Assembly: GCA_026395055.1 (NCBI GenBank)
Contig: JAPLZK010000002.1
Coordinates: 56,940 to 120,939, forward strand
Reading direction: 5' to 3'
Length of the DNA stretch: 64,000 bases
Origin: Candidatus Uhrbacteria bacterium
GTDB lineage: Bacteria; Patescibacteriota; Patescibacteriia; UBA9934; GWF2-40-263
In this document: one piece after another, positions 21,999 to 42,242 of the stretch
Position numbering within the stretch: position 1 is the first letter of the stretch
Layout of the letters: each line of letters opens with the position of its first letter
Notes under the pieces: model-generated
Told to the model about the DNA's origin: nothing
Databases searched by the model: none
What the model saw: only the letters and a program-made list of their open reading frames with translations
Translations under genes and position numbers: made by a program

Positions 21999-22047
21999 GA
22001 GGGGCAAGGGATTAGTAGCTAACTGGCTTACTAACCCCTAACCCCTC

Positions 22048-23614: not shown

Positions 23615-23627
23615 AAGCCCTTTCCTC

Positions 23628-23655
23628 AGAACGTCCCAAAAAGACGTTCTTTTTT
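23628..23655 (+). terminator. Intrinsic terminator
   Basis: agaacgtc-ccaaaaa-gacgttct hairpin followed by T5. Confidence 0.8.
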
Positions 23656-23660
23656 GTTGC

Positions 23661-23698
23661 TTGACAAGAGTTTAGTATGTGTATAATCTACACTTAGT
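23661..23698 (+). promoter_or_regulatory. Promoter P2 (TTGACA ... TATAAT) carrying the same 28-bp box as P1
   Basis: TTGACAagagTTTAGTATGTGTATAATCTACACTTAGT. Confidence 0.7.
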
Positions 23699-23893
23699 AA
23701 CGCATTTCATTACCTTCCCCTTGCGAAGGGGGAGCATGAGGGGGTCTGTGGCTAAAAGCCTTGACATTCCGCTGTTATTTCCTTAAGGTTCGCCCTTGTT
23801 TTTCTTCCGGAATCGAACAATGTGTCCGCTTCGGGAAGGGAAACAAACACAAGGTTTGTCTCGCGCGTCCTTTTCACAACAGAGGGATCATCC

Positions 23894-25537
23894 ATGCACA
23901 CTTTGCCAGACGTTCGTACGCTTCCGCTTCCGTCCAAATTCCTTGTCGCGCTTCAGAAACTGATTCTTCGCACGCTTGAGATCTCTGGGTCAAAGATGGG
24001 GAATCAACTCGTCGAAGCGATTTTTGGAAAAACCATCACGTTTGGTCAACTCCAGATTCCTTCTATGCAAGATTGTGTTGAAGCGATTCGGGGCGAAGGT
24101 ATGACGCGTCCAAACATTCGCATTCGTGAACTCGTAGATCTCTTTGGAGCGATCAACCCAACAACGCCTGTGTGCGATGAGTGTGGTGAGTTTGCCATCA
24201 ATCAGATCGGTGGAAAGTTCATGGAACTTCAGCCCGACGAACTCTGTCCGTTTTGTTTGCAGGGCCACGTCAAGATCGAACCGATGATTCTGCGTACGGT
24301 GAACTGGGCAACTGGTGAACTCGTTGTGCCGAACATTGATTACGATTCACACTCGCGCATTGGTCTCGGCATTCCGCTGACTGATGAAGCGATTGTGAAG
24401 TGGGCGGATGGAATCAATATGGATTTGGATGCCGCACTCGTTGCGGCAAAGATTTCCATTCACGGGTTCCTTGCGTACCTGTATCTGCGTCAGCATGCAT
24501 TCGCACAGCTCGAAGACGTTCCGAAATTTCTGTTGAGTCCACGTGGATTCGATACGAAGTATTCGGAAGAGACACTCGATCGTCTCATACGTGAGGCATC
24601 GCAATTTCTGGATGTGCGTGAGATCACAAATCTTCCGCACAAGAAATTTCTTCCTGATGGTCGTCGTCGCGATGAGTTTACCTCGATCACAATCGGTGGT
24701 CGCGCGTATCTCATCGATGGCAAGATTGGTGAAGGAGATAAGTGCGATGTGTACGCTGGTCGATGGGATCACGAGCCGACGGAGCGTGTCGTCGTAAAGA
24801 TTGCACGCGTTGGCGTGAGTGATGATCGACTGCGTGCGGAGCGCACAAATCTTGAGTTGCTCGCGAAGAGTGATGCGCAAGGCGTGGAATTTTTTCGCCA
24901 ACTGCTTCCGGAAATCATTTCGTTCGGCAGCGTACAAGATCCAAACGGGCAATCACGCTCGTGTGTGGTCTATCGCGATCGAAACGGATTTGATTGGACC
25001 CTCGCTGACGTGATGCGTGCGTACCCACAAGGAGTGGAGCCACAGACGATGGTCTGGATGTTCAATCGAACACTCATGTTGCTTGCGTGGATGCATGAAC
25101 ATGACATTGTGCACGGTGCTCTCACACCTGGGCACATGCTCATTCATCCGAAGTATCACGGACTCATGTTTCTTGACCTCGCGTATGCGGGTCGAATCGG
25201 ACAGCCGCTTCCGGATGTCGAACCTTCACACGTGCTCTATCGTCCAAGTGCATCGCTTACCAACAATGTCTTTCACCCAATGATGGACATCTGTATGGCA
25301 GCGCGATGCATGATTGTGGTCATGGGAGGAAACCTCGAGCAAAAAACGATTCCGACAACTGTGCCGGATCCGCTCGCGGCGCTCTTGTCCAACCTCGCAT
25401 TTCCGGATGATAGCCATTTGTGGGGTTCGCGTTTTGCCAAGTTGGCCGATCAAGTCAAAGCAAGCTTTGGCGCGATTGCGGAAACGGTTTACGGCCCGAG
25501 GAAGTATCACGCATTTGAAATGCCACCCGTGGCATAG
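23894..25537 (+). CDS. Protein-kinase-fold protein, probable pseudokinase, with N-terminal CxxC...CxxC zinc-ribbon (547 aa)
   Basis: Gly-loop IGEGDKCDVY, VVVKIA Lys, ERTNLELL. Catalytic loop IVHGALTPGHMLI has Ala in place of the catalytic Asp. DFG position reads FLDLAYAG. RBS agaggga. Confidence 0.6.
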   Translation: MHTLPDVRTLPLPSKFLVALQKLILRTLEISGSKMGNQLVEAIFGKTITFGQLQIPSMQDCVEAIRGEGMTRPNIRIRELVDLFGAINPTTPVCDECGEFAINQIGGKFMELQPDELCPFCLQGHVKIEPMILRTVNWATGELVVPNIDYDSHSRIGLGIPLTDEAIVKWADGINMDLDAALVAAKISIHGFLAYLYLRQHAFAQLEDVPKFLLSPRGFDTKYSEETLDRLIREASQFLDVREITNLPHKKFLPDGRRRDEFTSITIGGRAYLIDGKIGEGDKCDVYAGRWDHEPTERVVVKIARVGVSDDRLRAERTNLELLAKSDAQGVEFFRQLLPEIISFGSVQDPNGQSRSCVVYRDRNGFDWTLADVMRAYPQGVEPQTMVWMFNRTLMLLAWMHEHDIVHGALTPGHMLIHPKYHGLMFLDLAYAGRIGQPLPDVEPSHVLYRPSASLTNNVFHPMMDICMAARCMIVVMGGNLEQKTIPTTVPDPLAALLSNLAFPDDSHLWGSRFAKLADQVKASFGAIAETVYGPRKYHAFEMPPVA

Positions 25538-25542
25538 CTCTT

Positions 25543-25626
25543 CGTAGAGGAGGGGATTTACTTCTCCTCTACGAAATCTTTTTCCTGACTTGAAACGTGT
25601 ACACAAAATTTGTGCACGCATTTCAG
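25543..25626 (+). promoter_or_regulatory. Island junction unit, W variant
   Basis: cgtagaggag...ctcctctacg hairpin, TTTTTCCTGA, long imperfect hairpin gaaacgtgtacacaaa/tttgtgcacgcatttc, TTTCAGA. Confidence 0.6.
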
Positions 25627-25688
25627 ATCATGAATCTGAATCGAACAAAGGGTTCGAGGAACGTTCTTCACAACACAGGAGTCAGCAC

Positions 25689-26636
25689 ATGGGTGGCGGA
25701 TTTTACGATTACCGTGCACACGAAGCAACAACGGTTGCGCGTGCAGCCAAACCCATTCAAGTGGTGTTTTCACAAACGGCGTGTCATCCGCTCATGGATC
25801 CGAAAGGATTGCGTGTGCGTGAATCACGTGACAGTTTGGAACATCCAAACTCGCGTGCGATTCTCTTTGGAGTCGATGTGACGAAGTCGATGGGGCCAAT
25901 CCCAGAAGGGTTGGCAAAGCGAACATTGCCGCAATTCATGCGCGCCGTGCTCCGCGTCATTCCGCATCCGCAGATTTGTTTTGTTGGCATCGGTGACGCA
26001 CTCGATGGGGATCGCGCTCCGCTTCAAGTGGGTGAGTTCGAAAGTTCGCACGCGCTTATTGATGCGAGTCTTACGCGTCTGTACATCGAAGGTGGTGGTG
26101 GATCCATCGGAAGTGAGTCTTATGAGAACATGTTTTATCTGGCTGCACGTCATACGTCGATTGACTGTTGGGAGAAGCGTCGCGAAAAGGGGTATCTCTT
26201 TTTGACTGGCGATGAAACTCCGTATCCAAACGTGATTGCCTCCACGATCAATCGATTGATTGGTCCAGGAACGCTGACCGCAAACATTCCCATCGAAGCA
26301 ATCATTGCAGAAGCAAGTGTGAAATATCATCCGTTCTTTTTTATTCCAGACCAAGGTCGCTCACTCACGATTGAACGTTCGTGGCGCAACAAGCTTGGGG
26401 ATGCAGTGATCGTTCTTCAAAATCCGGAAGATACGTCCGTTGCGGCCGCGATCTTGATTGGCCTCTGCGAAGGCGTTTATCAACATCTCGACGACGTGCG
26501 TCAGGCACTTGCAACGGAGTTTGATCGAAAGGGCGATGCGTTGTATCGCGTTGTTTCATCTGTTGAAGCATACGCCGCATCCATTGGACTTGGTGGCGCG
26601 CGCCGTCCGGTTTTGTCGCAAGGTGTGCGGTGGTGA
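25689..26636 (+). CDS. vWA-domain protein 1 (315 aa)
   Basis: MIDAS-like FGVDVTKSMG, later IGDA and LFLTGDETP. Paralog of the next gene. Confidence 0.65.
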   Translation: MGGGFYDYRAHEATTVARAAKPIQVVFSQTACHPLMDPKGLRVRESRDSLEHPNSRAILFGVDVTKSMGPIPEGLAKRTLPQFMRAVLRVIPHPQICFVGIGDALDGDRAPLQVGEFESSHALIDASLTRLYIEGGGGSIGSESYENMFYLAARHTSIDCWEKRREKGYLFLTGDETPYPNVIASTINRLIGPGTLTANIPIEAIIAEASVKYHPFFFIPDQGRSLTIERSWRNKLGDAVIVLQNPEDTSVAAAILIGLCEGVYQHLDDVRQALATEFDRKGDALYRVVSSVEAYAASIGLGGARRPVLSQGVRW

Positions 26637-26649
26637 TTCCAATTTCTTT

Positions 26650-26731
26650 GTAGGGGAGGGTGACTATTCTCCCCTACACCATTTTTTCCTGAACTGAAAT
26701 ATCTATTCGATCATCGAATGTATATTCCAGG
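26650..26731 (+). promoter_or_regulatory. Island junction unit, W variant
   Basis: gtaggggag...ctcccctac hairpin, TTTTTTCCTGAA, long imperfect hairpin ending TTCCAGG. Confidence 0.6.
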
Positions 26732-26819
26732 TCATGAATCTGGTTCTGTTATCGAGGGTTCGATTCCAGAAGTGTCTCATATTCCGATTTCGATCGGAAG
26801 TACACAAGGTAGGTGTCTC

Positions 26820-27794
26820 ATGGGCAGTGGTGGTTGGGATCATAGCGCTTCAACGGCGCGTTCACAGACGCGTTCGGCGCGTTCTGTTCAAGAAACGGTG
26901 TTGCAGGATTTTACGCAGACGCGTGAAAGCCGAATCCATCCGGGGATGCATCCGAATGGGCTCGTGTTTCGCGAGTCGCGTGACAGTGTGGAACATCCGA
27001 AGTCTCGTGCAATCATCGGTTCGCTCGACATCACGCAGTCGATGCAGGGGCTTCCGCCGCTGCTCGCGCGTGAGACGTTGCCGCAACTGATGGCAGGCGT
27101 TTTGCCGATTTTGCCGGATGCACAACTGTGCTTCATGGCGTTCGGTGATGCGGATGATGGACACAACTATCAAGGACCGTGGCAGGTTGGTCAGTTCGAG
27201 AGCTCGGATGAGCTTGCGGACGCGTGGCTGACGCGCATCTGGTTGCAAGGGAGTGCTGGTTCGTCTCCGTGCGAATCCGCGGACCTCATCTTGTACACGG
27301 CGGCTCGGCTCACGCGCATCGATTGTCACGAGAAGCGTGGCGAGAAAGGTTATCTGTTCATTCTGACCGATGACACGTGCCGCGACTACGTTTGTGCGGC
27401 AACGGTGAACAAGTGGCTTGGTCGTCAGGAACTCGATGAGAACGTCTCGATCGAGGCGATCATTCAGGAAGCTGCTGAAAAGTACCACATCTTCGTGTTG
27501 ATCCCGGATCAGGCGCGTGCGGTGCAGATGCGTGGCGGCGAGCGCGTCATCGATCACTATCGTCGTCGTATCGGCAACGGGGCGATTGCGCTTGGTGGGT
27601 ACCAGGACACGTCCATCGTTGCGGCCATGCTCATCGGCCTCACCGAAGGCGCGTACAACATGTCGAACGTCGACCATGAGTTGCGCACGCGGTACGGCAA
27701 GTCGGGTGACGAGCTGAATCGGTTGCTCATGATCCTGCGTCCGTACGCGGAATCCCTGCCGAAGACGCCGCTCATCGTGGATCTGCCCGTCTGA
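26820..27794 (+). CDS. vWA-domain protein 2 (324 aa)
   Basis: GSLDITQSMQG MIDAS-like motif, FGDADD, LFILTDDT. Shares the HPxMxPxGLxxRESRDSxEHPxSRAI N-terminal block with vWA-1. Confidence 0.65.
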   Translation: MGSGGWDHSASTARSQTRSARSVQETVLQDFTQTRESRIHPGMHPNGLVFRESRDSVEHPKSRAIIGSLDITQSMQGLPPLLARETLPQLMAGVLPILPDAQLCFMAFGDADDGHNYQGPWQVGQFESSDELADAWLTRIWLQGSAGSSPCESADLILYTAARLTRIDCHEKRGEKGYLFILTDDTCRDYVCAATVNKWLGRQELDENVSIEAIIQEAAEKYHIFVLIPDQARAVQMRGGERVIDHYRRRIGNGAIALGGYQDTSIVAAMLIGLTEGAYNMSNVDHELRTRYGKSGDELNRLLMILRPYAESLPKTPLIVDLPV

Positions 27795-27806
27795 GTTCTT
27801 TCTTCT

Positions 27807-27870
27807 GAGGTTCAACGGGAACCTCCTTTTTTACAAGTGATGATCACAGGGATGATTGCTTCTAGAAAAG
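27807..27870 (+). promoter_or_regulatory. Island junction unit
   Basis: GAGGTTC-aacg-GGAACCTC, CTTTTTTACA, tgatgatca/tgattgc stem, TAGAAAAG, then GGAGGAG RBS. Confidence 0.7.
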
Positions 27871-27891
27871 TTCTAGCTTCGGAGGAGTCCT

Positions 27892-29277
27892 ATGACTCGA
27901 CATGCTCATCTTGTCGTTGATCTTTCAAACGGGGATGCAGGAAAAGGAACGATCGTGGATGCGCTCGTGCGGAAGTATCGTGCGCATACCGTGATTCGAT
28001 TCAATGGCGGTGCGCAAGCGGCGCATCGTGTTGTGACCGGTGACGGTCGCGAACATATTTTTTCCCAATTCGGTTCAGGAACATTTGTTCCGGGTGTGCG
28101 CACTGTGCTTTCGAAGTACGTGCTCGTTCAGCCGTGGGCGCTTGTTCCGGAAGCGGAGCATCTCGAAGAGCTCGGCATTACGGATGCCTTTGATCGATTG
28201 TTTATTCATGAAGACGCACTCATCATCACACCATTTCATCGAGCGGCAAATCGCTTGCGTGAACGTGCGCGTGCAAAATGGGATGGTCGACATGGGAGTT
28301 GCGGAATCGGCGTTGGCGAGACGGCACATGATGCGCTCACGCTCAAGGAATCGCTCGTGGTTCGCGTGCGTGACTTGCGTGATCTGGGTGCGTTGAAAGA
28401 AAAACTGCAACGCGTGCAAAAACAAAAAGCGTTTCATGTTGATGCGATGATGTTTCAACTGATCGACGATCCAGAAGCCTCCGTAGACATTATCGAACTC
28501 GAAGATCCGGAAGCGGCAACATCTTGGATCAAGCAGCTCGAAGCGGTGCTACCGAAACTGAATATCATTGATGACACATGGTTTGCATCTCTCTTGAACG
28601 AACCAGGTCACATCGTGTTTGAAGGTGCACAAGGTGTGCTCATTGATGAGTCACGCGGATTTCATCCGTACACCACGTGGTCGAATTGTACATTTCAAAA
28701 CGCGCTCGACTTGCTCGCAAACTACGATGGAGAGATTCATAAGATCGGAGTTGTCCGAGCGTATGCGACGCGCCATGGTCCTGGTCCGTTTGTGACGGAA
28801 GATGTTCATCTCACAGAACGTCTGCCGGACGCATGTAATAAAATGGATCCATGGCAGCGTGGATTTCGCGTCGGCCACTTCGATTGCACCTCTACTCGAT
28901 ATGCGATCTCGGCTTGTGACGGCATCGACTCGCTTGCGATTACATGTCTCGACCGCTTGCGCGATGAGCCTGCGTGGAAGATCTGCACATATTATGAACT
29001 TGCTCCAGAAGATGAAGAAAGCACGTTGTTCTATGTTGTGAAGACGTTTCGAGGTTTTCGCCTCTGGATGGACCCTGGACCGTTCCAAGACCTTATATAC
29101 CAAGAGCGACTCACGCACGCACTCGAGCGCGCGAAGCCCGTGCTTCACATTACAACCACGTCAGGAACGTTCGATGAACGCGTCGAACACCATGTCCGCG
29201 AGATTACACAAGAACTCAACGTTCCTGTCTCGATCCTTTCGTTCGGTCCAACAGCAGAAGATAAGAAATTTCTCTAG
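27892..29277 (+). CDS. Adenylosuccinate synthetase family enzyme (PurA/PurZ-like, 461 aa)
   Basis: P-loop GDAGKGTIVD, RFNGGAQAAH, GSCGIGVGE, FEGAQGVLIDESRGFHPYTTWS and ATRHGPGPFVTE, in the canonical PurA order. Confidence 0.8.
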   Translation: MTRHAHLVVDLSNGDAGKGTIVDALVRKYRAHTVIRFNGGAQAAHRVVTGDGREHIFSQFGSGTFVPGVRTVLSKYVLVQPWALVPEAEHLEELGITDAFDRLFIHEDALIITPFHRAANRLRERARAKWDGRHGSCGIGVGETAHDALTLKESLVVRVRDLRDLGALKEKLQRVQKQKAFHVDAMMFQLIDDPEASVDIIELEDPEAATSWIKQLEAVLPKLNIIDDTWFASLLNEPGHIVFEGAQGVLIDESRGFHPYTTWSNCTFQNALDLLANYDGEIHKIGVVRAYATRHGPGPFVTEDVHLTERLPDACNKMDPWQRGFRVGHFDCTSTRYAISACDGIDSLAITCLDRLRDEPAWKICTYYELAPEDEESTLFYVVKTFRGFRLWMDPGPFQDLIYQERLTHALERAKPVLHITTTSGTFDERVEHHVREITQELNVPVSILSFGPTAEDKKFL

Positions 29278-33203: not shown

Positions 33204-33329
33204 ACAAAACTTTCAAATTTGGATGCAATGCGCCGGGCTGGAGGGAAAAAATGTTTGAGTCGTAGATCGCCTACGGCGAAAACATTTTTTCCCGAAGCCC
33301 AAGCAGGGCGCCAAATTTGGAAGTTTTGT
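33204..33329 (-). repeat. tRNA-abutting long hairpin element, copy 1
   Basis: 19-nt arms acaaaactttcaaatttgg / ccaaatttggaagttttgt (1 mismatch) around a GC-rich core with an inner hairpin gggaaaaaatgttt/aaacattttttccc. Related to 63469-63595. Confidence 0.8.
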
Positions 33330-33403
33330 GGTGACCCCAAGGGGAATTGAACCCCTGTTACCAGGATGAAAACCTGATGTCCTAACCATTAGACGATGGG
33401 GCC
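33329..33403 (-). tRNA. tRNA-Glu (UUC), CCA encoded
   Basis: Cloverleaf folded by hand: acceptor GGCCCCA/TGGGGTC, anticodon loop TTTTCAT, T-loop GGGGTTCAATTCCCC. Confidence 0.9.
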
Positions 33404-33482: not shown

Positions 33483-33510
33483 ATAAAAAATCCACCAACA
33501 GTGTTGGTGG
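33483..33510 (-). terminator. Intrinsic terminator ending the AAA+/WD40 operon
   Basis: Minus-sense ccaccaaca-ctg-ttggtgg followed by ATTTTTTATT. Confidence 0.8.
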
Positions 33511-33517
33511 AGAAGAG

Positions 33518-34534
33518 TCAGACGGGAAGTTCTCGAATGAATGGGGTGTTACCGCGGCCAATGTTTTCGCTTCCGAAGTCGAAGATTTGTACGGGGTGTC
33601 CGCCCTGACCAAGGGATTCAAACGGTATTTTGTTTGAAGTGCTCGTTGCAAGGTAACGTCCATTTCCATAGAGGCACATGTGTTCAACCGGGTTGTTGAA
33701 TCCACTAATGTCACAGAGGATGTTACCGTCCGGGATTTGTACGACCAGAACGTAGTTTGGATTTTTTGTGGAAAGGAGAATTGTCTCATCATCAACGACG
33801 ACGAGATGTGAATATTCAACACGATGACTGTAACAAATTATGCGAGAGTTTCGTGTTGGTGCAATGAGCGTTATTTTATTCTTTTCAAGAAAAAGGAGTG
33901 TCCCGTTCGGTGTCCACCCACATTGAAAAATTCTTTCCGCATGTGTTTCCAGTTTTCCCGAACCCCATTTGGGATGAATGTCGTTCGAAGAATAGCCGAA
34001 CAATTGGTAGTCTCTCCACGATATTGCAATGAACGTTGGTGAATTTGGATTTGCAACGATTCCACTGAATGGCGTGTTGTTGCGCCTGCTTTCATAAACG
34101 ATTTTGTGCGTAGTGCCTGTCCATTCTAGAACACGTACGAGCCCTGTATCTGTCACAAACGCCACAAGATCATTTTGTAAAACAGTGAGGTGGGATTCAC
34201 CGTTTTTTGCAGATCGAAAGAGGTTGCTCGTTATCTCAATGTCAATATCGTTGCGTGTGAGGAACCAGATATTTCCATCCTTGGATGTGAGATATGCTCG
34301 CGTTCCATCCTTGGACCAGCGGAGGGAGGTGAAGTGATTTTCGACTGGATCAAATTTACCTAATGTCTTTCCAGTCTTCGGGTTGAAAAGACAAAGCGTG
34401 CTTTCGTTTTTGTTTTCTCCTCTTCCGATGCAAACAAACATTTGTTCGTCGGGGGAAATGGAAATGTGCGTGATGGGTGGATAATTTCCCTTTAAGGTGA
34501 AAAGGCGCAACGGTTCTCGAATAAGATCGGACAT
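33518..34534 (-). CDS. WD40-like beta-propeller paralog 1 (338 aa) with conserved C-terminal tail
   Basis: Repeated blade-like segments (ITHISISPDEQMFVC, LRWSKDGTRAY...). Tail IFDFGSENIGRGNTPFIRELPV. Confidence 0.65.
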   Translation of the reverse strand: MSDLIREPLRLFTLKGNYPPITHISISPDEQMFVCIGRGENKNESTLCLFNPKTGKTLGKFDPVENHFTSLRWSKDGTRAYLTSKDGNIWFLTRNDIDIEITSNLFRSAKNGESHLTVLQNDLVAFVTDTGLVRVLEWTGTTHKIVYESRRNNTPFSGIVANPNSPTFIAISWRDYQLFGYSSNDIHPKWGSGKLETHAERIFQCGWTPNGTLLFLEKNKITLIAPTRNSRIICYSHRVEYSHLVVVDDETILLSTKNPNYVLVVQIPDGNILCDISGFNNPVEHMCLYGNGRYLATSTSNKIPFESLGQGGHPVQIFDFGSENIGRGNTPFIRELPV

Positions 34535-34559
34535 GGGATCCCTCCGATGGAAACTTGAA

Positions 34560-34622
34560 CTTTCTCATGAACATTCATCGCGTTGATGACCGTTCATGTA
34601 AAAGGGCGATCACGTGATCGCC
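34560..34622 (-). promoter_or_regulatory. Island junction unit, V type
   Basis: Minus-sense GGCGATCACGTGATCGCC, CTTTTACA, TGAACGGTCATC-aacgc-GATGAATGTTCA, TGAGAAAG, then GGAGGG RBS. Confidence 0.8.
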
Positions 34623-34629
34623 GAGGATG

Positions 34630-35646
34630 TTAGACCGGGAGGTCTGTAATAAAGGGGGTGTTGTTGCGGCCCAGGTTCGCGCTCCCGAAGTCAAAAATCT
34701 GAGCAGAATGATCTCCGGCACTACGAGAGCAAAATGGAATGTGGTTTGCCGTGTTTGTCATGAGATATCGCCCAAGGTCAAACAAACACATACTTGTTAC
34801 CGGCTTTACGAATCCGCCCATGTCAAACAAGATTTTTCCATCCGGGATCTGTACGGCCAGGATGTAGTTTGGATTTTTCGTTGAGACAAGAATGGTTTCG
34901 TTATTCACGACAAGCAAATCTTCGAGCTCAATTCCGTGATTGATAACGATCCGTTTTTCGTCTCGACGATCAAGAACAATTCGATCTGGAAGAAGAAAAA
35001 TCCATGTTCTGTCTTGGGTCCACGCACCTTTTTGAATTCCATTTTCAAGAGGAGGATCTTGTCTCATGCAGATCCAGTTATTCCCCGTATCTCCAAACAG
35101 CTGAATATATGCACCACATGTCGAGAGAAACATGGATGGATTTGTGGAAGGAATAATTCCTGAGAATGAACAGTGCTGTTGTTCTTGGTGGACGACGACG
35201 TGTTTCTGTCCATCCCATGTCATTACACAGATGAGGCCAGATTGAGTGATGAATGCAATCAAATCATCCACTAAGATTGTCAGGTAGGTTGGACCGTTGA
35301 TATGAATGGGGTTTGTTCCGCGTGCATGCTCGTAGAGCAATTTCATTTGTTTAAATTTGTTTTCTTGCCATTCAAGAAAGAAAATTTTTCCGAGCGGTGT
35401 CGTTGCATACAAACGTTCGCCATTTTTTGACCATTGTAGTGTCTTAAATGAGAAACTTTGTATGTACGGTTTGCACAGTTCTTTTTCAGTTTGTGGGTTG
35501 AAAAAGTGAATGGCAGTGAAGTCGTGCTCTTGTTTTCCCATGCAAGCAAGTGTTTGCTCGTCTGGTGAGAGAGTAAGATGTGTAATCGGGTCACGATTAT
35601 TACTCAGCAACAAACGATGAGCAGGCTCTCGAATAAGATCGGACAT
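34630..35646 (-). CDS. WD40-like beta-propeller paralog 2 (338 aa)
   Basis: Same N-terminus (MSDLIREP) as paralog 1. Tail IFDFGSANLGRNNTPFITDLPV. Confidence 0.65.
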   Translation of the reverse strand: MSDLIREPAHRLLLSNNRDPITHLTLSPDEQTLACMGKQEHDFTAIHFFNPQTEKELCKPYIQSFSFKTLQWSKNGERLYATTPLGKIFFLEWQENKFKQMKLLYEHARGTNPIHINGPTYLTILVDDLIAFITQSGLICVMTWDGQKHVVVHQEQQHCSFSGIIPSTNPSMFLSTCGAYIQLFGDTGNNWICMRQDPPLENGIQKGAWTQDRTWIFLLPDRIVLDRRDEKRIVINHGIELEDLLVVNNETILVSTKNPNYILAVQIPDGKILFDMGGFVKPVTSMCLFDLGRYLMTNTANHIPFCSRSAGDHSAQIFDFGSANLGRNNTPFITDLPV

Positions 35647-35671
35647 GGGATCCCTCCGATGGAAACTTGAA

Positions 35672-35734
35672 CTTTCTCATGAACATTCATCGCGTTGATA
35701 ATCGTTCGTGTAAAAGGGCGATCACGTGATCGCC
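35672..35734 (-). promoter_or_regulatory. Island junction unit, V type
   Basis: Nearly identical to 34560-34622, including the leader and RBS. Confidence 0.8.
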
Positions 35735-35741
35735 GAGGATG

Positions 35742-36725
35742 TTAGACCGGGAGGTCTGGAATGAGCGCGGTTGGTTTGCGGCCAAGGTTTGGGCCGCCGA
35801 AGTCAAGGACGCGCGGCCACTTTTCATAGTCTTGTCGTACGGCGCGTGCTCGCTCTTTGCTTGCGGCAATGAGGTAGCGATTTTCTTCGCCATAGACACA
35901 GACGGAGGAAATGCCGCCTGCGAATCCGCCGATCTGTTTTTGCACAACCATCTCAGGAAACTGAGCGATCACGAGTCCTGTTGTTGTTCCGACCGCGAAT
36001 GTTTTGTCATCTACTTTTGTTAGACAAAGAACGGGCTGTTCAAGTTTCAGGAATGGAGCGTCTTTTACAGAACGCACAGATCCGTCTTCGCATCCGGTGA
36101 GAAGTGTTTCTCCCATCCAGAGAAGACTGTTCACTTGTGCTTCTTCTTTTCGTTCACGTGCATCGCGAACAAGTCGTCGTTGCAGAGCTTGTTCGTAGTC
36201 TGTGGCGTCGTAGACCATGATTCCGTTTTTCACAGAGCTTGCAGCAAGATGTGTGCCGTCTTCATTGAATACAAGCATGTTGCAATCACACTTTTGATCT
36301 CCAAGATCGACATTTGCTTCGTTGCGTACATGTATGACGTTGTTGTACATGCTTGCAATGAGATTTTTTGCGGAAACAGCCGCGCTTGGAATAGCCGTGT
36401 CTTGTGGAGAAAAGACTCGAGCGCTTTTCCATGCTTGTGTCGGGTCGTCCGGTCGTGGCCAGGATAGGGTTGATGCTCCATCACTTGTGATGAGACGATC
36501 ACCTTTTTTGTTCCAGGCAACGGTATGAACATCACTTTGATGACCATCCAGAATTTTGACGACTTCACCCGTTTCCGGATTCCAAATATGGACTCGTGGA
36601 TCTCCACGATTACCCGCGCCGGCAATCAGCTTTTGATCAGGCGACAGCGCAAGTTGCCACACGTCGTGGTTGTGTCCACCAAGGACGCGCGCAATTTTCG
36701 GATCTGGGATCTCTTGGTCTGCCAT
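35742..36725 (-). CDS. WD40 repeat beta-propeller paralog 3 (327 aa)
   Basis: Canonical WD signatures (GGHNHDVWQLALSPDQKLIAGAG...VHIWN, LDGHQSDVHTVAWN). Tail VLDFGGPNLGRKPTALIPDLPV. Confidence 0.75.
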   Translation of the reverse strand: MADQEIPDPKIARVLGGHNHDVWQLALSPDQKLIAGAGNRGDPRVHIWNPETGEVVKILDGHQSDVHTVAWNKKGDRLITSDGASTLSWPRPDDPTQAWKSARVFSPQDTAIPSAAVSAKNLIASMYNNVIHVRNEANVDLGDQKCDCNMLVFNEDGTHLAASSVKNGIMVYDATDYEQALQRRLVRDARERKEEAQVNSLLWMGETLLTGCEDGSVRSVKDAPFLKLEQPVLCLTKVDDKTFAVGTTTGLVIAQFPEMVVQKQIGGFAGGISSVCVYGEENRYLIAASKERARAVRQDYEKWPRVLDFGGPNLGRKPTALIPDLPV

Positions 36726-36750
36726 GAAGCACCTCTATTGAAAGAAAGAA

Positions 36751-36812
36751 ACTTTCTCACGAACGTTCATCACTCGATGACGATTCGTGTAAAAGGGCGA
36801 TCACGTGATCGC
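36751..36812 (-). promoter_or_regulatory. Island junction unit, V type
   Basis: GGCGATCACGTGATCGCC, CTTTTACA, CGAATCGTCATC-gagt-GATGAACGTTCG, TGAGAAAG. Confidence 0.8.
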
Positions 36813-36820
36813 CAAGCGTG

Positions 36821-37900
36821 CTAGACCGGAAGTTCTCCAATGAGCGGAATGGGCATACGACCAAGGTTTGGATTTCCAAAGTCGTAGATAGCGGGAGAGA
36901 ATTTCATATAACCCGTATCGTCTTGCGTGTGCGAGTCGCTCGTAATCATGAAGCGACCATTTCCGTACAGGAGAATGGAACGCAGATCCTGAAACCCTTT
37001 GAGGGAGTAGAGGATTTTCATGTCCGGCAGTCGCACAATCCGCAGTTCGTCCTTCCCGTTTTTTCGAATACTCAGGATGAGTGTCTGTGCATCCACAAGA
37101 CAAAATGTGTTGAGATGATCAATGTCTGTGCGTGCGTCATAGAGGTTGTTTGCGATATTCGAATGAATACCAATCTTCCCTCCATCCGATGCAGAAACAA
37201 GGACGTCCTCGGTGAGCCAATCAATTTCTTCGATCGGTCCATTATCTGTTTTGAAAGCGGGGCCGGCCTGTTCCAGTTCGCTTTCAGAAGCAGAGAGGAT
37301 GCACAACTTTGCCCCTATGCTTACAGCAAGTTTGTTGCCATTCGGAGAAAAGGTAAGGAGTCGGATTCCTCCATCGTATTTTTTTCGATGAAGGAGTTTT
37401 GGTCGCGAACCCTTTGTAAGGCGGAAGATCCAGATGTGGTTATTTTGGGCTGCAGCAAGAAAGCCTGATGAAGAAACAGCGACGGTCGTAAACTTATTTG
37501 TCGATGTGCCGCCGTATCCATTGTGTTCAGACGTCGTGTTTTGGACTCGTTTTATTACCCATTCTCCACGACCAGGTTTTTGCCAAAACCATCTGGACTC
37601 TTGCCAAGAAATAACATCTCCGGAAAGGTCTGCAAGAAAAACGGTCTGTCCATGTGTGGACCAAGCGATTCCATCTTTTGCAACAGACGCTGATCGCTCT
37701 TCGTTTTTGTGCAGATCCAATCGTCGCAGAATAGTGCCCGTTGCAACATCCCACATGTGAACTTCTTCATCTTCTCCTGCGCCAATCAGACGTTGTTCGT
37801 CCGGAGAGAGGGCAAGGTGATTGAGAACAGTCGTTCTGCCTTCAAGTCGACGGATCAGTTTTGGTGCGGGGATTTTGATGTCTTCGGTGACGGGTTCCAT
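36821..37900 (-). CDS. WD40-like beta-propeller paralog 4 (359 aa)
   Basis: LNHLALSPDEQRLIGAGEDEEVHMWD. Tail IYDFGNPNLGRMPIPLIGELPV. Start at MEPVTEDI after the aagagg RBS. Confidence 0.7.
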   Translation of the reverse strand: MEPVTEDIKIPAPKLIRRLEGRTTVLNHLALSPDEQRLIGAGEDEEVHMWDVATGTILRRLDLHKNEERSASVAKDGIAWSTHGQTVFLADLSGDVISWQESRWFWQKPGRGEWVIKRVQNTTSEHNGYGGTSTNKFTTVAVSSSGFLAAAQNNHIWIFRLTKGSRPKLLHRKKYDGGIRLLTFSPNGNKLAVSIGAKLCILSASESELEQAGPAFKTDNGPIEEIDWLTEDVLVSASDGGKIGIHSNIANNLYDARTDIDHLNTFCLVDAQTLILSIRKNGKDELRIVRLPDMKILYSLKGFQDLRSILLYGNGRFMITSDSHTQDDTGYMKFSPAIYDFGNPNLGRMPIPLIGELPV

Positions 37901-37930
37901 GCGTAAGACCTCTTGGGTGAAAGGAACGGA

Positions 37931-37993
37931 CTTTCTCATGAACGTTCATCGCGCTGATGATCGTTCGTGTAAAAGGGCGATCACGTGATCGCC
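37931..37993 (-). promoter_or_regulatory. Island junction unit, V type
   Basis: GGCGATCACGTGATCGCC, CTTTTACA, CGAACGATCATC-agcgc-GATGAACGTTCA, TGAGAAAG. Confidence 0.8.
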
Positions 37994-38006
37994 GAGAGGA
38001 AGGAAC

Positions 38007-40721
38007 TTATGCTTCACCAACATTACGGTCGATGAGAGCGGGATTGATTTCTGGAATAGGATCGGAACCTGCCGGCAAACCACGGAGCATGCGAAGCGCA
38101 CGCTCGATTTCATCCTTCACATTTTCTGGGAGAAAAAGTTTGGACGAGCAGTTTTGAATGGCAAGCAGGGTCATGCGTGCAATCTCTACCACAGATGCGG
38201 AAGGAAGATAATCTTCGATCGCACCCGTGAGAGCTTTTTCATTGATGTTTCCACCGCCGAATTGGTCTGCACGGCGAACCAAGACTTCAATGTCCGCACC
38301 GGTCAGTCCGTCCGTCTTTTCCGCAAACGTTCCGAAGTCGGTCAGAGGAGACTCGAATCCGTAACGCTTGATCATGACGGGGAACAGTCGGGTGCGTGTT
38401 TCCTGGTCTGGCATCAGAATCGGGATGCGATCGTCGGTTCGGCCCGCGCGCTTGAGGGCGCCGTCGAGCAGATCCGGACGATTAGTTGCACTCACGACAA
38501 AGATGCGTCCGCGGATGGTTGGATCCGAAAGGAACTGCATCATCGCCTGACGAACGCGATTGCTCACGCCCGAGTCGCCTTGATATCCATCGCGTCCATT
38601 GTCTTCTTGATCCACTTCGTCACGAAACCAGACGAGTGGTGCAAGCGCACGCAGGGCGATGAACAATTGTTCCATCTTTTGTTCCGTCTCTCCGACCCAC
38701 TTGGAACGGATCGGACGGGTTTTCACAAGGAGCACACCCGCTTCATGTGCAAGTGCGGTTGCAAGCGCGCTTTTGCCCGTCCCCGGAGGTCCCATCAAAA
38801 GGCAACCCATCGGGACACGACGTGCGTCTCCTGCGAGCATGGCGTCGCGCACGCGGATGAAATATTCTTTCACGCCATCGAGTCCGGCAACACCATCGAA
38901 TCCATACGGAGGCCGCTCGATCTCAAGGAGGTCGCCGTATGTTTTGGTGAGAAGAGCGATGCGACGTGATGTGACTTCCACGGCCGACAGGTCTTGTGTG
39001 TTCGCGCTCGCTTCCCGAAAGAGGGTTGTGAGATCGCGATACCCAAGGTTCCCTGTGAGTTGCGTCAGTGACCGAATGCCGATGGTTGGTGTGGGGAACG
39101 GATTGCGCGCGGTCATGTTTTGCATCATGACACGAATGCTTTCCGCTTCTTTTTCCAACTGCTTGATGTCTGGTGTGGATGGATGATCGTGAGAGGCTTG
39201 TAGATCTTGTTTGGTGCTCTCGCAAGCTTTCTTGTATTTGTTGATTTCCGCACACACCGCTTGTGTTTGCTTTTTGATCTGTTCTTGGAGCGCATCCATT
39301 TCCGCTTGGATTTGTTGCACCACCGTATTTTTGTTCTGCTGAATGCCATCAAACCGCTTGCGAGATTCCGCAAGGGTCGTTTCAAGTCGACTCCGTTCGC
39401 CACGCTGAAGCGTGTATTCGAATTGTGTGTCGAGCATGATCCGTTTTGGGGAATCACTTTTGTGCAGACGACAGACGAGTCCGCCGCTCGCAGACCAGTT
39501 GAAGTACACCGGAAGACCTTGTGCATTCAACCACGGATTATCATCCGTGAGCTTTGTCAGACGAACATCTCCGTCCGCATCTGCATCACTCATGACACGC
39601 GTTGTCTGAATTTTTCCATCCGTTGGACTTCTGAGCGTGATCAAATCATTTGTCAGAAGGGTTTGCCAACGCGAGGAGTTCAGAAATTGCGGTTGCAGTT
39701 CCGGATCTTCACGCAATCGATGTTCGAGTTGCGAGATCTGTGTTCGCAAGGACGTGATTTCTTGCTCGAGCGCGGACGCACCACTTGCAAGGTGTGCGGT
39801 CATGCGTGCTTGCGCACTTTCGAGGGATTTCTGTCGCGCTTGGATATCAACGCTTTCTTGAACAAGCGCGGCTCCTTGTCGATTGAGTTCGGCAAGTTGT
39901 TCGTCTTGGAGAAGAATTTGTTGATGGATCCGTTGCTGTTCTGCCTGACGCAAAACGTTCAGACGTGCTTCGAGTCTATTGAGTTCTTCTTGCTTCATGC
40001 TCGTCTCATCTGTGAGAGATGAAATGAAACGCAGACGCTCTTCTTCATCGGGTGGCATGATCGTGATGGGCACGATCGGACTTTCCGGACGACGAAGTCG
40101 TTCGGGAAGCGCACTCAACGTTCGAGCACTCATGAGCATCAGATGTCCTGCACGTGCGAAACGATCATTTTCTGCGATGCGCATGACAAGCAGGGCAATG
40201 CGTTCCGTCGCGCGGTCCGTTCCACCGAGGGCACCTGAGCACACGGCGTCAAAGTCCGGCATGATCGCAATGCATCGTCCGACTTTTGCTTTCTTGTCCG
40301 ACGCAACCGATGTTGCCTGGTCAAAAACTTTGTGCATGAGACCAAGGGCTTCCAGTGGTTCTGTCGGAAGAGGCATTTCTGATTGAAGGGCTAGCGCGGC
40401 TTTTTCTGCAGGAGTCAACGCTCCTGCTGGAGGAGCTTCTCCATTTGCGAGCGCGCGAAAGCGCTGTTCCATGGAAGGTTTTTTCTCATCCGTGGATTTC
40501 GGGAACCGAAACCCAAGAGCGGGATCAAAGAACCACAGAATATCGATTTCTTGCACGTGCAAGCGTCGTGAAAGGGCTTTGTGCCACGTATCCAGTCGAT
40601 CAACCGGATCTGTTTCTGCGCTCCGTTCGAGCAAAGGAAATCCATCACTCACGGAACCAGTGAACAAAAACGCGCGAGTACCTTCTTTGAGCCGTTTTTC
40701 AAATTCTTGAATCCAACGCAT
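38007..40721 (-). CDS. Large AAA+ ATPase (904 aa): degenerate N-domain, long coiled coil, C-terminal classic AAA module
   Basis: Walker A LLMGPPGTGKSALA, Walker B VWFRDEVDQ, SATNRPDLLDGALKRAGRTD (second region of homology). About 250 aa of heptad-rich sequence in the middle. Start at MRWIQEF after AGGAGG. Confidence 0.8.
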   Translation of the reverse strand: MRWIQEFEKRLKEGTRAFLFTGSVSDGFPLLERSAETDPVDRLDTWHKALSRRLHVQEIDILWFFDPALGFRFPKSTDEKKPSMEQRFRALANGEAPPAGALTPAEKAALALQSEMPLPTEPLEALGLMHKVFDQATSVASDKKAKVGRCIAIMPDFDAVCSGALGGTDRATERIALLVMRIAENDRFARAGHLMLMSARTLSALPERLRRPESPIVPITIMPPDEEERLRFISSLTDETSMKQEELNRLEARLNVLRQAEQQRIHQQILLQDEQLAELNRQGAALVQESVDIQARQKSLESAQARMTAHLASGASALEQEITSLRTQISQLEHRLREDPELQPQFLNSSRWQTLLTNDLITLRSPTDGKIQTTRVMSDADADGDVRLTKLTDDNPWLNAQGLPVYFNWSASGGLVCRLHKSDSPKRIMLDTQFEYTLQRGERSRLETTLAESRKRFDGIQQNKNTVVQQIQAEMDALQEQIKKQTQAVCAEINKYKKACESTKQDLQASHDHPSTPDIKQLEKEAESIRVMMQNMTARNPFPTPTIGIRSLTQLTGNLGYRDLTTLFREASANTQDLSAVEVTSRRIALLTKTYGDLLEIERPPYGFDGVAGLDGVKEYFIRVRDAMLAGDARRVPMGCLLMGPPGTGKSALATALAHEAGVLLVKTRPIRSKWVGETEQKMEQLFIALRALAPLVWFRDEVDQEDNGRDGYQGDSGVSNRVRQAMMQFLSDPTIRGRIFVVSATNRPDLLDGALKRAGRTDDRIPILMPDQETRTRLFPVMIKRYGFESPLTDFGTFAEKTDGLTGADIEVLVRRADQFGGGNINEKALTGAIEDYLPSASVVEIARMTLLAIQNCSSKLFLPENVKDEIERALRMLRGLPAGSDPIPEINPALIDRNVGEA

Positions 40722-40745
40722 CAGACACCTCCTGTAAGGAACAAA

Positions 40746-40807
40746 CTTTCTCATGAGCATTCATCACTCGATGATCGCTCGTGTAAAAGGGCGATCATGT
40801 GATCGCC
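40746..40807 (-). promoter_or_regulatory. Island junction unit, V type (palindrome variant CATG)
   Basis: GGCGATCACATGATCGCC, CTTTTACA, CGAGCGATCATC-gagt-GATGAATGCTCA, TGAGAAAG, then AGGAGG. Confidence 0.8.
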
Positions 40808-40814
40808 AAGAAGA

Positions 40815-41414
40815 CTAGAGACTTTTGGCGAGCAAGAGGATTGCTTCGCCGAGTTCGTAGGGCATGATGCCAACGATTTGTGTGCCGGTTTTATCAAACG
40901 TGATCGAGACCTTGGCGGTTTTGAGATCCACTTCCGAATAGCGATCCGTTAGACGGTGAATGACCTGATTCGATGATCCTCGCAGAGGAAGACCAAGCTT
41001 CACAAGGCGTGTTGCAAATGGCCCGTCGATGAGAACGTCGAGTTGATCAAGCAGGTTGCGTGCGCCGTTTGGTGCGCGCAGAGACTCGATGTGCCGACGT
41101 GTATAGCCGGACCACGACAACGTCGAGAGTCCGAGTGCTCGCGCTTCTTTTGCAATGTGCGCGAGCGCGAGCGCTTGCTCGAACGGTTCACCACCAGAAA
41201 AACTGATGCCCTCAATTCCATGTTCCTCTTTTGCCAGACGTACCTGCGTAAGAATGTCTTGCACACGTGATGGCTGGAGGGGAAGAGATGAAATGAGTTC
41301 TGGTGTGCCGCACCCTTTGCAATTGATGGAGCACCCGCGTACCCAGAGACACGCGCGCTTGCCCGGTCCCATGGATTCTGTGCATGGATCAAACACACCG
41401 ACGTTGACGTTCAT
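40815..41414 (-). CDS. Small radical-SAM activase of the NrdG/PflA-activating-enzyme type (199 aa)
   Basis: GPGKRACLWVRGCSINCKGCGTPE (CX3CX2C right after the GPG motif). GISFSGGEPF SAM-binding motif. Confidence 0.7.
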   Translation of the reverse strand: MNVNVGVFDPCTESMGPGKRACLWVRGCSINCKGCGTPELISSLPLQPSRVQDILTQVRLAKEEHGIEGISFSGGEPFEQALALAHIAKEARALGLSTLSWSGYTRRHIESLRAPNGARNLLDQLDVLIDGPFATRLVKLGLPLRGSSNQVIHRLTDRYSEVDLKTAKVSITFDKTGTQIVGIMPYELGEAILLLAKSL

Positions 41415-41416
41415 GC

Positions 41417-41632
41417 TTACGATCCAGTCTTCAGCTTGTCGCGCGTTGCTTCCGGAATGGGTTGGGCAGGCGCGCGAGGTGCTTCTGAAATTTCGAGTGG
41501 TGCTGCCCCAAGGAGTGACAACACGGCAAGCATCTTGTCGTGTGCGGAATCGCATTCACGAGCGGGAGCTTCAATGTCGACTTTCAGTTTGCCGTCCTTT
41601 GTGCGAACGATCTTTACGAGTGAGCGACTCAT
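41417..41632 (-). CDS. DUF2997-like small protein (71 aa)
   Basis: VKIVRTKDGKLKVDIEAPARECDSAHDKMLAVLSLLG matches my recollection of the DUF2997 pattern (I..DG.v.v...G..C......LG). 4-nt overlap upstream and a 2-nt gap downstream. Confidence 0.45.
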   Translation of the reverse strand: MSRSLVKIVRTKDGKLKVDIEAPARECDSAHDKMLAVLSLLGAAPLEISEAPRAPAQPIPEATRDKLKTGS

Positions 41633-42150
41633 TGCAGCACCTCGTCGATGACAAAGTTGACGACCGTCGTTCCTGCATCGTCGGTTTTGCAATTCACATT
41701 TTTCCCGACAACCTGCGCCATGGTTTCAAGAGAGCGAATTTGACGCCGCTCTTCGAAATACGCCTTCCATTGCTTTTGACGTTCGGACAATCCGCTTTCG
41801 CCATGCTCGAATCGTGTGGAGACGAAACTAAGCTTTCCTTTGTTGTTCACAACGCCAAACCGTTCTACGTCTGTCGCAAGAACCCCCAGGACTTCTCCCT
41901 TCGGTTTTTCGATCGGACTGCCATATTGGTTGTTTTGCACTTCAAAGGTTTTCGTCAGCTGCATGTTGAAATGTGCTGCCGTGTCGTCCAAGGCCTTTTT
42001 TGCAATGTCCGCGCGGATCTCGGCCCAGTCAATCTTCTTGAGCTGATTCGCGAGTGCTCGGTTCTTGGCGGCAATTTTCTCGATTGCCTCATTGATATCT
42101 TGGCCTTGTTCCAAAGCCTCTTGCCTTGCGGCAATCCAGTGACGTGACAT
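41629..42150 (-). CDS. DUF1257-like protein with helical N-terminal extension (173 aa)
   Basis: The C-terminal ~100 aa (HFNMQLTKTF...ERFGVVNNKGKLSFVSTRF...VGKNVNCKTDDAGTTVVNFV) resemble the Ycf35/DUF1257 layout, from memory. RBS gaagagg. Confidence 0.4.
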   Translation of the reverse strand: MSRHWIAARQEALEQGQDINEAIEKIAAKNRALANQLKKIDWAEIRADIAKKALDDTAAHFNMQLTKTFEVQNNQYGSPIEKPKGEVLGVLATDVERFGVVNNKGKLSFVSTRFEHGESGLSERQKQWKAYFEERRQIRSLETMAQVVGKNVNCKTDDAGTTVVNFVIDEVLQ

Positions 42151-42242
42151 GGGTACCTCTTCCAAAGGGGGAAATTTCCTCTGGTTTCTGCCGCTTTTTT
42201 GCAAACGCGGAAGGAATCAATGGAAATGGAATTCGATCGGAA

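Follow-up and report, generated by a model that had tools for sequence, protein, structure and literature searches.

Why do four neighbouring WD40-type genes, whose products have diverged widely, all stop on the same peptide? The question is raised by a gene cluster in 64,000 nt of a Candidatus Uhrbacteria metagenome-assembled genome (MAG; Patescibacteria, or candidate phyla radiation, CPR), and this whole stretch (contig JAPLZK010000002.1, positions 56,940-120,939; NCBI locus tags NTX72_01330 to NTX72_01375) is called the window here. Four beta-propeller genes lie in it downstream of a gene for an AAA+ ATPase, and a first-pass annotation had proposed that their common ending, DFGxxN(L/I)GRxxxxxIx(D/E)LPV, is a docking or recognition peptide. 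We found that the ending has two parts, the first predicted to be structural and the last ~10 residues predicted to be free, and that a fifth protein carries the free part only. It is possible, and we propose it tentatively, that this free part serves all five proteins as a docking or recognition peptide and that the adjacent AAA+ protein reads it.

A shared ending in two parts

The tail carriers, the segments of the tail and the nearest paralog of the fifth carrier are as follows:

33518-34534, minus strand: propeller paralog 1, 338 aa, last gene of the cluster; C-terminus QIFDFGSENIGRGNTPFIRELPV, quoted ending IFDFGSENIGRGNTPFIRELPV
34630-35646, minus strand: propeller paralog 2, 338 aa; C-terminus IFDFGSANLGRNNTPFITDLPV
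35742-36725, minus strand: propeller paralog 3, 327 aa, canonical WD40 repeats; C-terminus VLDFGGPNLGRKPTALIPDLPV
36821-37900, minus strand (listed open reading frame (ORF) to 37939): propeller paralog 4, 359 aa from M14; C-terminus IYDFGNPNLGRMPIPLIGELPV
33554-33586, minus strand: strand and turn of paralog 1 (IFDFGSENIGR); equivalents at 34666-34698, 35778-35810 and 36857-36889
33521-33553, minus strand: free peptide of paralog 1 (GNTPFIRELPV); equivalents at 34633-34665, 35745-35777 and 36824-36856
26718-27794, plus strand: VWA-type protein 2 (VWA-2), fifth tail carrier, family-typical start probably M35 at 26820; ends SLPKTPLIVDLPV (KTPLIVDLPV)
25590-26636, plus strand: VWA-type protein 1 (VWA-1), 46%-identical paralog of VWA-2, directly upstream of it

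Paralog 4 probably starts at 37900 (M14), because the upstream intergenic cassette with its GGAGG site (described below) falls within the listed ORF. The translated ORFs bore out the common ending on all four tandem genes, and also that it is more conserved than the diverged bodies: 12 of the 22 final columns are invariant in a four-way alignment, and the bodies are 20-45% identical. The observation that paralog 3 has canonical repeats and paralogs 1 and 2 barely do likewise held, with Pfam WD40 matches of 3.8e-17 for paralog 3 and 6e-7 for paralog 1 and no PF00400 match for paralog 2. PF00400 exceeds its gathering score in paralogs 1, 3 and 4, and paralog 2 matches propeller-domain models only, all below their cutoffs. 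The window has 1240 stop-to-stop frames of 30 aa or more; five of them end in LPV (the four propellers and VWA-2), and the shared ending therefore exceeds chance.

AlphaFold2 models of two paralogs divide the ending. That of paralog 3 (mean predicted local distance difference test score, pLDDT, 85.7; predicted TM-score, pTM, 0.86) is a seven-blade propeller whose best Foldseek match is WDR5 (TM 0.74, E=1.6e-15); its last strand spans residues 305-308 and its final seven residues score ~53. The model of paralog 1 (mean pLDDT 81.8, pTM 0.82) places the last strand at 316-319 and a turn at 323-326, and residues 328-338 fall below 50. In both models the 10-residue blocks covering the strand, (R/Q)(V/I)(L/F)D, and the structured, helical turn, FGxxN(L/I)GR, have a pLDDT of 63-88, and the final 7-11 residues one of 30-53. 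Since the models give a confident final strand and a packed turn, residues -22 to -12, (I/V)x(F/L/Y)DFGxxN(L/I)GR, are predicted to form the last beta-strand and capping turn of the propeller and to be structural, and residues -11 to -1, xx(T/I)(P/A)(F/L)Ix(D/E)LPV-COOH, are predicted to be a flexible, solvent-exposed short linear motif. The first-pass annotation had named a closing strand of the propeller as the finding that would undo its docking peptide; such a strand with its turn does account for the first half, where the docking idea falls away, and the idea stands for the last ~10 residues, which have low pLDDT and recur in VWA-2. A conserved "tail" can thus conceal a structural closing strand, so that conservation alone overstates the length of a free motif.

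VWA-2, which the first-pass annotation had missed, is unrelated to the propellers and is encoded 6 kb from them. It shares TP(F/L)Ix(D/E)LPV only, and the DFG/NLGR part is wholly absent; what it shares is exactly the half of the propeller ending that is modelled as free at low confidence. The closest relatives of VWA-2 lack the tail, P0072 (66% identity) ending in SLSKN and P0073 (59%) in SLTKSVR. Because these homologues stop before it, the nine-residue LPV extension of VWA-2 is lineage-specific. VWA-1 has no LPV tail and a conserved ending of its own, G(V/I)(R/Q)W. The tailed set is thus the four propellers and VWA-2, and the tail-less set comprises the AAA+ protein, a radical-SAM protein and 71-aa and 191-aa proteins of the propeller cluster, together with VWA-1 and the kinase-like and adenylosuccinate-synthetase (PurA)-like proteins encoded beside it.

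Relatives, exchange of the tail and its rate of change

Relatives were sought with a word-indexed search of 5.8 billion proteins and an exhaustive HMMER search of 1.84 billion representatives, the profile of the latter being the last 62 residues. The word-indexed search returned only three family members from outside the window, all three tailed. The tail is kept by orthologues in at least three other assemblies (P0004-P0006, P0190), including the paralog 2 orthologue P0004 (79% identical), and it occurs in none of 57 generic WD40 matches. The HMMER search recovered the known members and, at 18-19% identity to the window paralogs, two remote ones, P0210 and P0214. Homologues elsewhere without the tail had been named in advance as evidence against a docking peptide, and these two are half of such a case: they keep I(F/L)DFGAKNLGR, and in place of LPV they have a common alternative tail, HPLE(E/R)RFA(A/T)I. 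D-F-G-x-x-N-x-G-R is the sole block still invariant at 18% overall identity.

P0210 and P0214 are tandem neighbours on a 3.5-kb contig (L029), with bodies 44% identical to each other. The contig is laid out like the window, with an upstream gene ending in EA, a hairpin after each gene and a CCACCAG...CTGGTGG terminator after the last one; it ends 26 codons into the upstream gene. This pattern leads us to regard DFGxxNxGR as the structural signature of the family and the last ~10 residues as an exchangeable, lineage-specific module that all paralogs of one cluster have in common.

Beyond these contigs the family was not encountered. Scans with the paralog alignment found no relatives in GTDB species representatives or JGI metagenomes; the P0210/P0214 alignment found none in JGI metagenomes, nor did the AAA+ protein in IMG/VR viral contigs, and no further LPV tail lies in the ~9 kb beyond the right edge of the window. 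A degenerate DNA pattern for TP[FL]Ix[DE][LF]PV-stop had 18 matches in the GTDB species representatives, none of them ending an ORF longer than 98 aa and none in Patescibacteria. A widespread housekeeping motif was rejected on this ground, as none of the 18 closes a real gene; a housekeeping reader of the motif is accordingly unlikely, and a lineage-specific partner is to be expected.

The other products of the cluster, with two proteases of the window, are:

38007-40721, minus strand: AAA+ ATPase, 904 aa, upstream of the propellers
40815-41414, minus strand: NrdG-like radical-SAM activase, 199 aa from M48 of the listed ORF
41417-41632, minus strand: 71-aa ORF, directly upstream of the radical-SAM gene
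41629-42204, minus strand: 191-aa ORF, first of the cluster, start probably M19
12096-12713: ClpP
49049-50893: FtsH

The order AAA+, paralog 4, paralog 3 is kept in three strains (L008 and L009 come from one sample and are counted together), with paralogs 2 and 1 next in the window. Paralog 4 orthologues are present in L009 and L030, and the number of tailed propellers varies, from two in L030 and at least three in L009 to four in the window. The C-terminal part of the 191-aa ORF product is kept in L008; the ORF has no match in Pfam, NCBIfam or PADLOC.

The sister strains L008, L009 and L030 were used to compare nonsynonymous divergence (dN) and its ratio to synonymous divergence (dN/dS):

AAA+ ATPase, window versus L008: dN 0.031, dN/dS 0.07
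radical-SAM protein, window versus sister strains: dN 0.051, dN/dS 0.12
71-aa ORF, 97% identical and called in L008: dN 0.013, dN/dS 0.06
propeller bodies, window versus sister strains: dN 0.12-0.14, dN/dS 0.18-0.23
propeller tails, window versus sister strains: dN 0.02-0.05

The tail evolves at the pace of the AAA+ protein, whereas the bodies change about four times as fast. Among the paralogs, the proportion of nonsynonymous differences (pN) is 0.14-0.31 in the tail versus 0.38-0.58 in the bodies. More than one codon is used at six of the ten tail positions where the amino acid is invariant, the ratio of pN to the synonymous proportion (pS) is below 1 in the tails of all paralog pairs, and nonsynonymous changes fall only at the "x" positions. 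VWA-2 encodes the motif in other codons again (ACG CCG CTC ATC GTG GAT CTG CCC). The tail is conserved at the protein level, under purifying selection, and its sharing with VWA-2, its replacement by HPLExRFAxI and its slow rate make it a portable module.

A proposed docking peptide and its candidate reader

C-terminal docking peptides select partners for ring machines such as the proteasome, the anaphase-promoting complex/cyclosome (APC/C) and ClpX, and to our knowledge nearly all such cases come from model organisms. For the present tail we infer three things: that it binds a protein partner, that the partner is the AAA+ protein and that the propellers are adaptors and not substrates. The AAA+ protein suggests itself as the reader because of the gene neighbourhood and the matching evolutionary rates. 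It adjoins the propellers in all three strains seen, and this constant adjacency, its VAT/Cdc48-D2-like domain and its ~600 uncharacterised N-terminal residues make it the favoured candidate. It has a single detectable AAA domain at residues ~640-820 (Pfam AAA, PF00004, 1.6e-26), which is closest to the D2 domain of VAT/Cdc48 (PDB VAT 5vc7, 2.7e-61) and scores below cutoff for NCBIfam Cdc48, PAN and FtsH; the N-terminal ~600 residues have coiled-coil-like stretches.

The variable copy number, fast bodies and fixed tail form the pattern expected of interchangeable adaptors or clients on one machine. The free motif would then be a shared address tag that tethers or marks the fast-diverging propellers for one common partner, binding the large N-terminal region of the AAA+ protein or the entrance of its ring, and the same motif would also tag one VWA-type protein of a separate operon. 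If the AAA+ protein is the reader, this would be a compact, experimentally tractable adaptor-motor system, whose peptide and N-domain can be made recombinantly, and it would link two clusters, one of AAA+, radical-SAM and propeller genes and one of VWA, kinase-like and PurA-like genes. A constant ~10-residue tail on two to four fast-diverging propellers, present also on a VWA protein and replaced in a sister lineage, gives a clear natural case of a putative docking peptide in an uncultivated CPR bacterium.

Several observations weigh against this proposal. The N-terminal region of the AAA+ protein, which may be an inactive AAA domain, has no Pfam or PDB match and no recognisable peptide-binding domain. 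The VWA-2 gene stands in a separate operon, where its partners conserved elsewhere are the kinase-like and PurA-like proteins and not the AAA+ protein of the cluster, and the propeller family is known from a handful of short contigs. At the DNA level, the tail-coding sequence abuts an intergenic cassette whose copies are ~96% identical, pooled synonymous divergence is about 0.53 in the tail versus 0.76 in the bodies, and the final Val codon is GTC in eight of eight copies versus a genome usage of 22%; the lower synonymous divergence and the invariant GTC therefore indicate that concerted evolution or nucleotide constraint contributes in part. A separate peptide reader was looked for among ~55 ORFs of the window, and no PDZ, TPR, MIT or other peptide-binding domain was found there; L-P-V-COOH fits the PDZ class II pattern (hydrophobic-x-hydrophobic-COOH), and none of these ORFs has a PDZ domain. 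Two mimicries were also considered and dropped. One was of the alpha-crystallin IxI/IPV anchor, dropped as the HSP20 of the window carries ISI and has no link to the cluster; the other was of the SSB tail (D-D-D-I/L-P-F) and of sliding-clamp motifs, from which the last residue and the overall pattern differ.

The docking reading has several counterparts among known systems. In the APC/C, the WD40 receptors Cdc20 and Cdh1 and the unrelated fold Apc10 dock at one site via Ile-Arg-COOH, the reader being the TPR grooves of Apc3. As there, propellers and one unrelated protein share a very short peptide at the extreme C-terminus. The APC/C, however, is a eukaryotic E3 ligase, whereas the present tail ends in (D/E)LPV-COOH, its proposed machine is an AAA+ protein and no TPR protein turned up in the window. 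SspB consists of a folded recognition domain, a flexible linker and the XB peptide (LRVVK-COOH), which tethers it to the ClpX N-domain. The AlphaFold2 anatomy of the propellers, a folded domain followed by a flexible C-terminal peptide, is alike; the sequence and the ATPase clade (ClpX) differ, and SspB is a single adaptor, not a diversifying array of paralogs. The HbYX/GQYL motif sits at the C-terminus of an ATPase or activator, has a penultimate Tyr and docks in the alpha-ring pockets of the 20S proteasome. It resembles the present tail as a conserved extreme C-terminal tripeptide on several alternative partners of one ring complex, and the first-pass annotation had invoked it as an analogy; the analogy fails, because position -2 is Pro and not Tyr in all five tails and the motif is on non-ATPase proteins. 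No proteasome or 20S subunit was found among the ~55 scanned ORFs.

F-box and DCAF-type receptors of ubiquitin ligases dock through an N-terminal folded domain or helix. These families share with the propellers a constant docking element, a fast-diversifying WD40 domain and a copy number that varies between close relatives; here, by contrast, docking would fall to ~10 C-terminal residues, and the gene next door encodes an AAA+ protein. That the cluster is a bacterial counterpart of such eukaryotic substrate-receptor arrays, with fast-evolving WD40 receptors on a Cdc48-like motor and a private C-terminal code rewritten between lineages (LPV versus RFAxI), is a rather doubtful extension of the docking proposal. 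A MoxR ATPase defines the FtsH-type ternary vWA-MoxR systems, in which the propeller is usually fused to the vWA; they combine a classical-clade AAA+ protein with a long N-terminal region, vWA, beta-propellers and a radical-SAM enzyme whose predicted substrate is a peptide with a small standalone gene of its own (Kaur, Burroughs, Iyer, Aravind 2020, eLife; PMC7159879). The parts list of the window is similar. It differs in that the propellers are standalone, the vWA is in a separate, widely conserved operon and the shared C-terminal tail is undescribed there; MoxR (AAA_3) matched none of the scanned window ORFs, and only one AAA domain is detectable in the 904-aa protein, versus the double AAA of the FtsH type. 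No description of the cluster or the tail was found in the literature searched, and PADLOC gave only generic AAA matches (IetA, TRIP13) and weak pVip and PD-T4-6 matches, with no known anti-phage system matched as a whole. The arrangement is confined to a few CPR assemblies.

Other explanations of the tail

The explanation that survives best after docking shares its reader and departs from it only in what becomes of the tagged protein: the tail would be a C-terminal degron or pore tag, and the propellers and VWA-2 would be substrates threaded by the AAA+ protein, ClpXP or FtsH in the style of the ssrA-type LAA-COOH. A free C-terminus of ~10 residues is what unfoldases need to begin threading, and small aliphatic residues with a free carboxylate close the tail. 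The AAA domain groups with the Cdc48/VAT unfoldases, and the window encodes ClpP and FtsH. We nevertheless consider a degron unlikely. A motif read by housekeeping proteases would be expected on other proteins and in other Patescibacteria, and no real gene in the species representatives searched ends in it; the AAA+ protein itself, which ends in NVGEA, has neither a protease domain nor an HbYX-like motif; and it is hard to explain why four fast-diversifying paralogs should be maintained merely for degradation.

Alternatively, the tailed proteins could recognise each other. An adjacent propeller would take up the tail on its peptide-binding face, or the Asp/Glu of the tail would complete the metal-ion-dependent adhesion site (MIDAS) of a VWA protein, giving a hetero-oligomer or chain that the AAA+ protein may dismantle. 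WDR5-like propellers are classic binders of short peptides and paralog 3 is WDR5-like, the one charged residue that never varies in the free tail is acidic, a MIDAS-like DxTxS motif (D104-x-T106-x-S108, read from the sequence) is common to both VWA paralogs, and two VWA genes with four propellers offer many possible receptor-ligand pairs. The bodies are however only ~20% identical, so that a common pocket is not evident, and the positions that all family members share are ones typical of WD40 structure. Other VWA subfamilies have basic or aromatic, not acidic, tails, which fits poorly with MIDAS binding as a family rule, and self-recognition is decidedly unlikely.

The third explanation would place the conservation mainly outside the peptide: the first half is structural, and the rest would be kept by gene conversion with the intergenic cassette or by an overlapping RNA or DNA signal, the tail of VWA-2 being a by-product of a shared 3' cassette. 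The elements concerned are:

34535-34629, minus strand: hairpin cassette, ~95 nt
35647-35741, minus strand: hairpin cassette
36726-36820, minus strand: hairpin cassette
37901-38006, minus strand: hairpin cassette
40722-40814, minus strand: hairpin cassette
27795-27891: diverged cassette copy after the VWA-2 gene
33491-33511, minus strand: intrinsic terminator, TCCACCAACACTGTTGGTGGA then T6, closing the cluster

A cassette separates every radical-SAM, AAA+ and propeller gene, in the order stop, GGCGATCACGTGATCGCC, CTTTTACA, GAGAAAGTT, GGAGG, ATG. Its hairpin has a 7-bp stem, GGCGATC(ACGT)GATCGCC, followed by CTTTTACA and a conserved spacer that ends in GAGAAAGTT; five palindrome matches were found versus 0.09 expected. 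In L030 and L029 the stem is kept and the loop varied. The cassette is probably not a CACGTG operator but an RNA hairpin, for example one that attenuates, stabilises or marks a processing site. The rule for terminators was passed by one of the five cassette hairpins, Rfam has no family for the cassette, and a role as sigma-70 promoter was unsupported by a scan for consensus promoters. The terminator that closes the cluster is of the same type as those that end it in L030 and L029.

The cassette speaks for a DNA-level cause in that its copies are ~96% identical, whereas the flanking proteins are 20-45% identical, and in that a 183-nt repeat (90% identity) covers both cassette and tail-coding gene ends; the tail pS below that of the bodies, the invariant GTC and the diverged copy downstream of VWA-2 point the same way. 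A DNA-level effect is nonetheless improbable as the main cause. Six of the ten invariant codons differ synonymously, no paralog pair reaches a pN/pS of 1, and VWA-2 encodes the peptide with different codons. In the relative L001 a hairpin also follows the VWA-2 gene, which has no tail there, and cassette and tail are therefore separable. The RFAxI lineage again has a tail common to both paralogs despite 44% body identity.

Lastly, the tail could be a substrate of the radical-SAM protein, with an invariant glycine carrying a glycyl radical, as the first-pass annotation had suggested for an exposed Gly, or with the free peptide modified in the manner of a ribosomally synthesised and post-translationally modified peptide (RiPP). 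The enzyme (Fer4_12, 1.8e-27; TIGR02491, NrdG, 83.9 bits versus a cutoff of 126.1 bits) is an NrdG-like activase below the NrdG cutoff, encoded 4-7 kb upstream on the same strand, and L008 has a called gene of equal length. The ~55 ORFs scanned include no NrdD-like gene, two glycines are invariant across the whole propeller family, and the survey cited above predicts peptide-modifying radical-SAM enzymes in AAA+/vWA conflict systems (PMC7159879). The glycines, however, sit in the structured strand and turn, outside the free tail, and VWA-2 has the tail and neither glycine. The canonical RVxG[FWY] is absent, DFGxxN(L/I)GR having no Arg-Val before and no aromatic residue after Gly, and the predicted fold is a 7-blade propeller, not the ten-stranded alpha/beta barrel of glycyl-radical enzymes or their C-terminal glycine-radical domain. 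The radical-SAM gene is moreover translationally coupled to the conserved 71-aa ORF, which stops 2 nt before its start and overlaps the 191-aa ORF by 4 nt; judged from this arrangement, the 71-aa product is a candidate partner or substrate of the enzyme, and a more obvious one than the tail. We regard the tail as a very improbable substrate, and the fuller scheme, in which the enzyme puts a glycyl radical or other radical-derived modification on the DFGxxNLGR glycines or the tail and the AAA+ protein is recruited via LPV to the modified proteins, is more improbable still, even if a beta-propeller would then be the first glycyl-radical carrier, or radical-SAM client, to lack the canonical barrel fold. 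The 71-aa ORF is under strong purifying selection and has no Pfam match. A likeness of the 71-aa and 191-aa products to DUF2997 and DUF1257, which co-occur in cyanobacteria (PMC4284462), was unconfirmed, with no Pfam match even at E up to 5, and is not claimed.

The VWA operon and other elements of the window

VWA-2 belongs to a family of more than 3685 proteins named "VWA domain-containing" by NCBI; it has no Pfam, NCBIfam or PDB match, and the VWA label comes from the NCBI names of its homologues. Within the family (P0069-P0188) the extreme C-termini follow a variable linker and are subfamily-specific, among them (S/T)WW(K/R)(K/R)LFG (e.g. WWKRLFG), SGHRR, G(K/R)GRTRRL and the G(V/I)(R/Q)W of VWA-1, and C-terminal docking peptides may be a general feature of the family. 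Alignment of VWA-2 with L001 is colinear at the DNA level, poorly similar and interrupted by a 10-nt indel, and fits either gain or loss of the tail. Past the TAG stop of the L001 gene (2230-2262) the frame reads ILDIVPSILR, colinear with the tail-coding DNA of the window (PLIVDLPV); this could be a relic of a lost tail, raw material for a tail or coincidence.

The VWA genes lie in a plus-strand neighbourhood (20898-29277) of a kinase-like protein (550-670 aa), one or two VWA-type proteins and then a divergent adenylosuccinate-synthetase-like protein, the PurA-like protein (179 bits versus a PurA cutoff of 402 bits). This order is kept across phyla, in Leptospira, Patescibacteria and an Uhrbacteria relative (loci L001, L004/L005 and L006/L007). 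In PADLOC the VWA and PurA-like proteins had no match and the kinase-like protein only weak PD-T4-6 matches, and the neighbourhood looks like an undescribed widespread module. In the relative L004 the module is ~5 kb away from tsaD and the interval lacks the propeller/AAA+ cluster; that cluster may be a recently acquired or fast-remodelled island.

Upstream of both VWA genes, in the window and in L001, an in-frame motif (Y)I(S/P)(D/G)HES lies ~35-45 codons before the MGGG start typical of the family; it is an N-terminal extension peculiar to this lineage or else a conserved leader element. Its positions are:

26718-26820 and 25590-25690, window
37-150 and 1073-1230, L001

A repeated promoter-like TTGAC...TTTAGTATGTGTATAAYCTACACTTAGT occurs on the plus strand at ~22050-22095 and ~23660-23700, before a 455-aa gene and the kinase-like gene. 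On the minus strand, a tRNA-Glu(TTC) gene (33329-33403) lies directly downstream of the last propeller gene.

Diversity-generating retroelements (DGRs) are a known kind of element, common in CPR bacteria, and the window contains one at 58132-60634:

58132-58791: DGR target gene, with the variable repeat at its 3' end (58666-58789)
59098-59221: template repeat
59624-60634: DGR reverse transcriptase (RVT_1, 3e-22)

The mismatches between its two repeats fall nearly all at template adenines.

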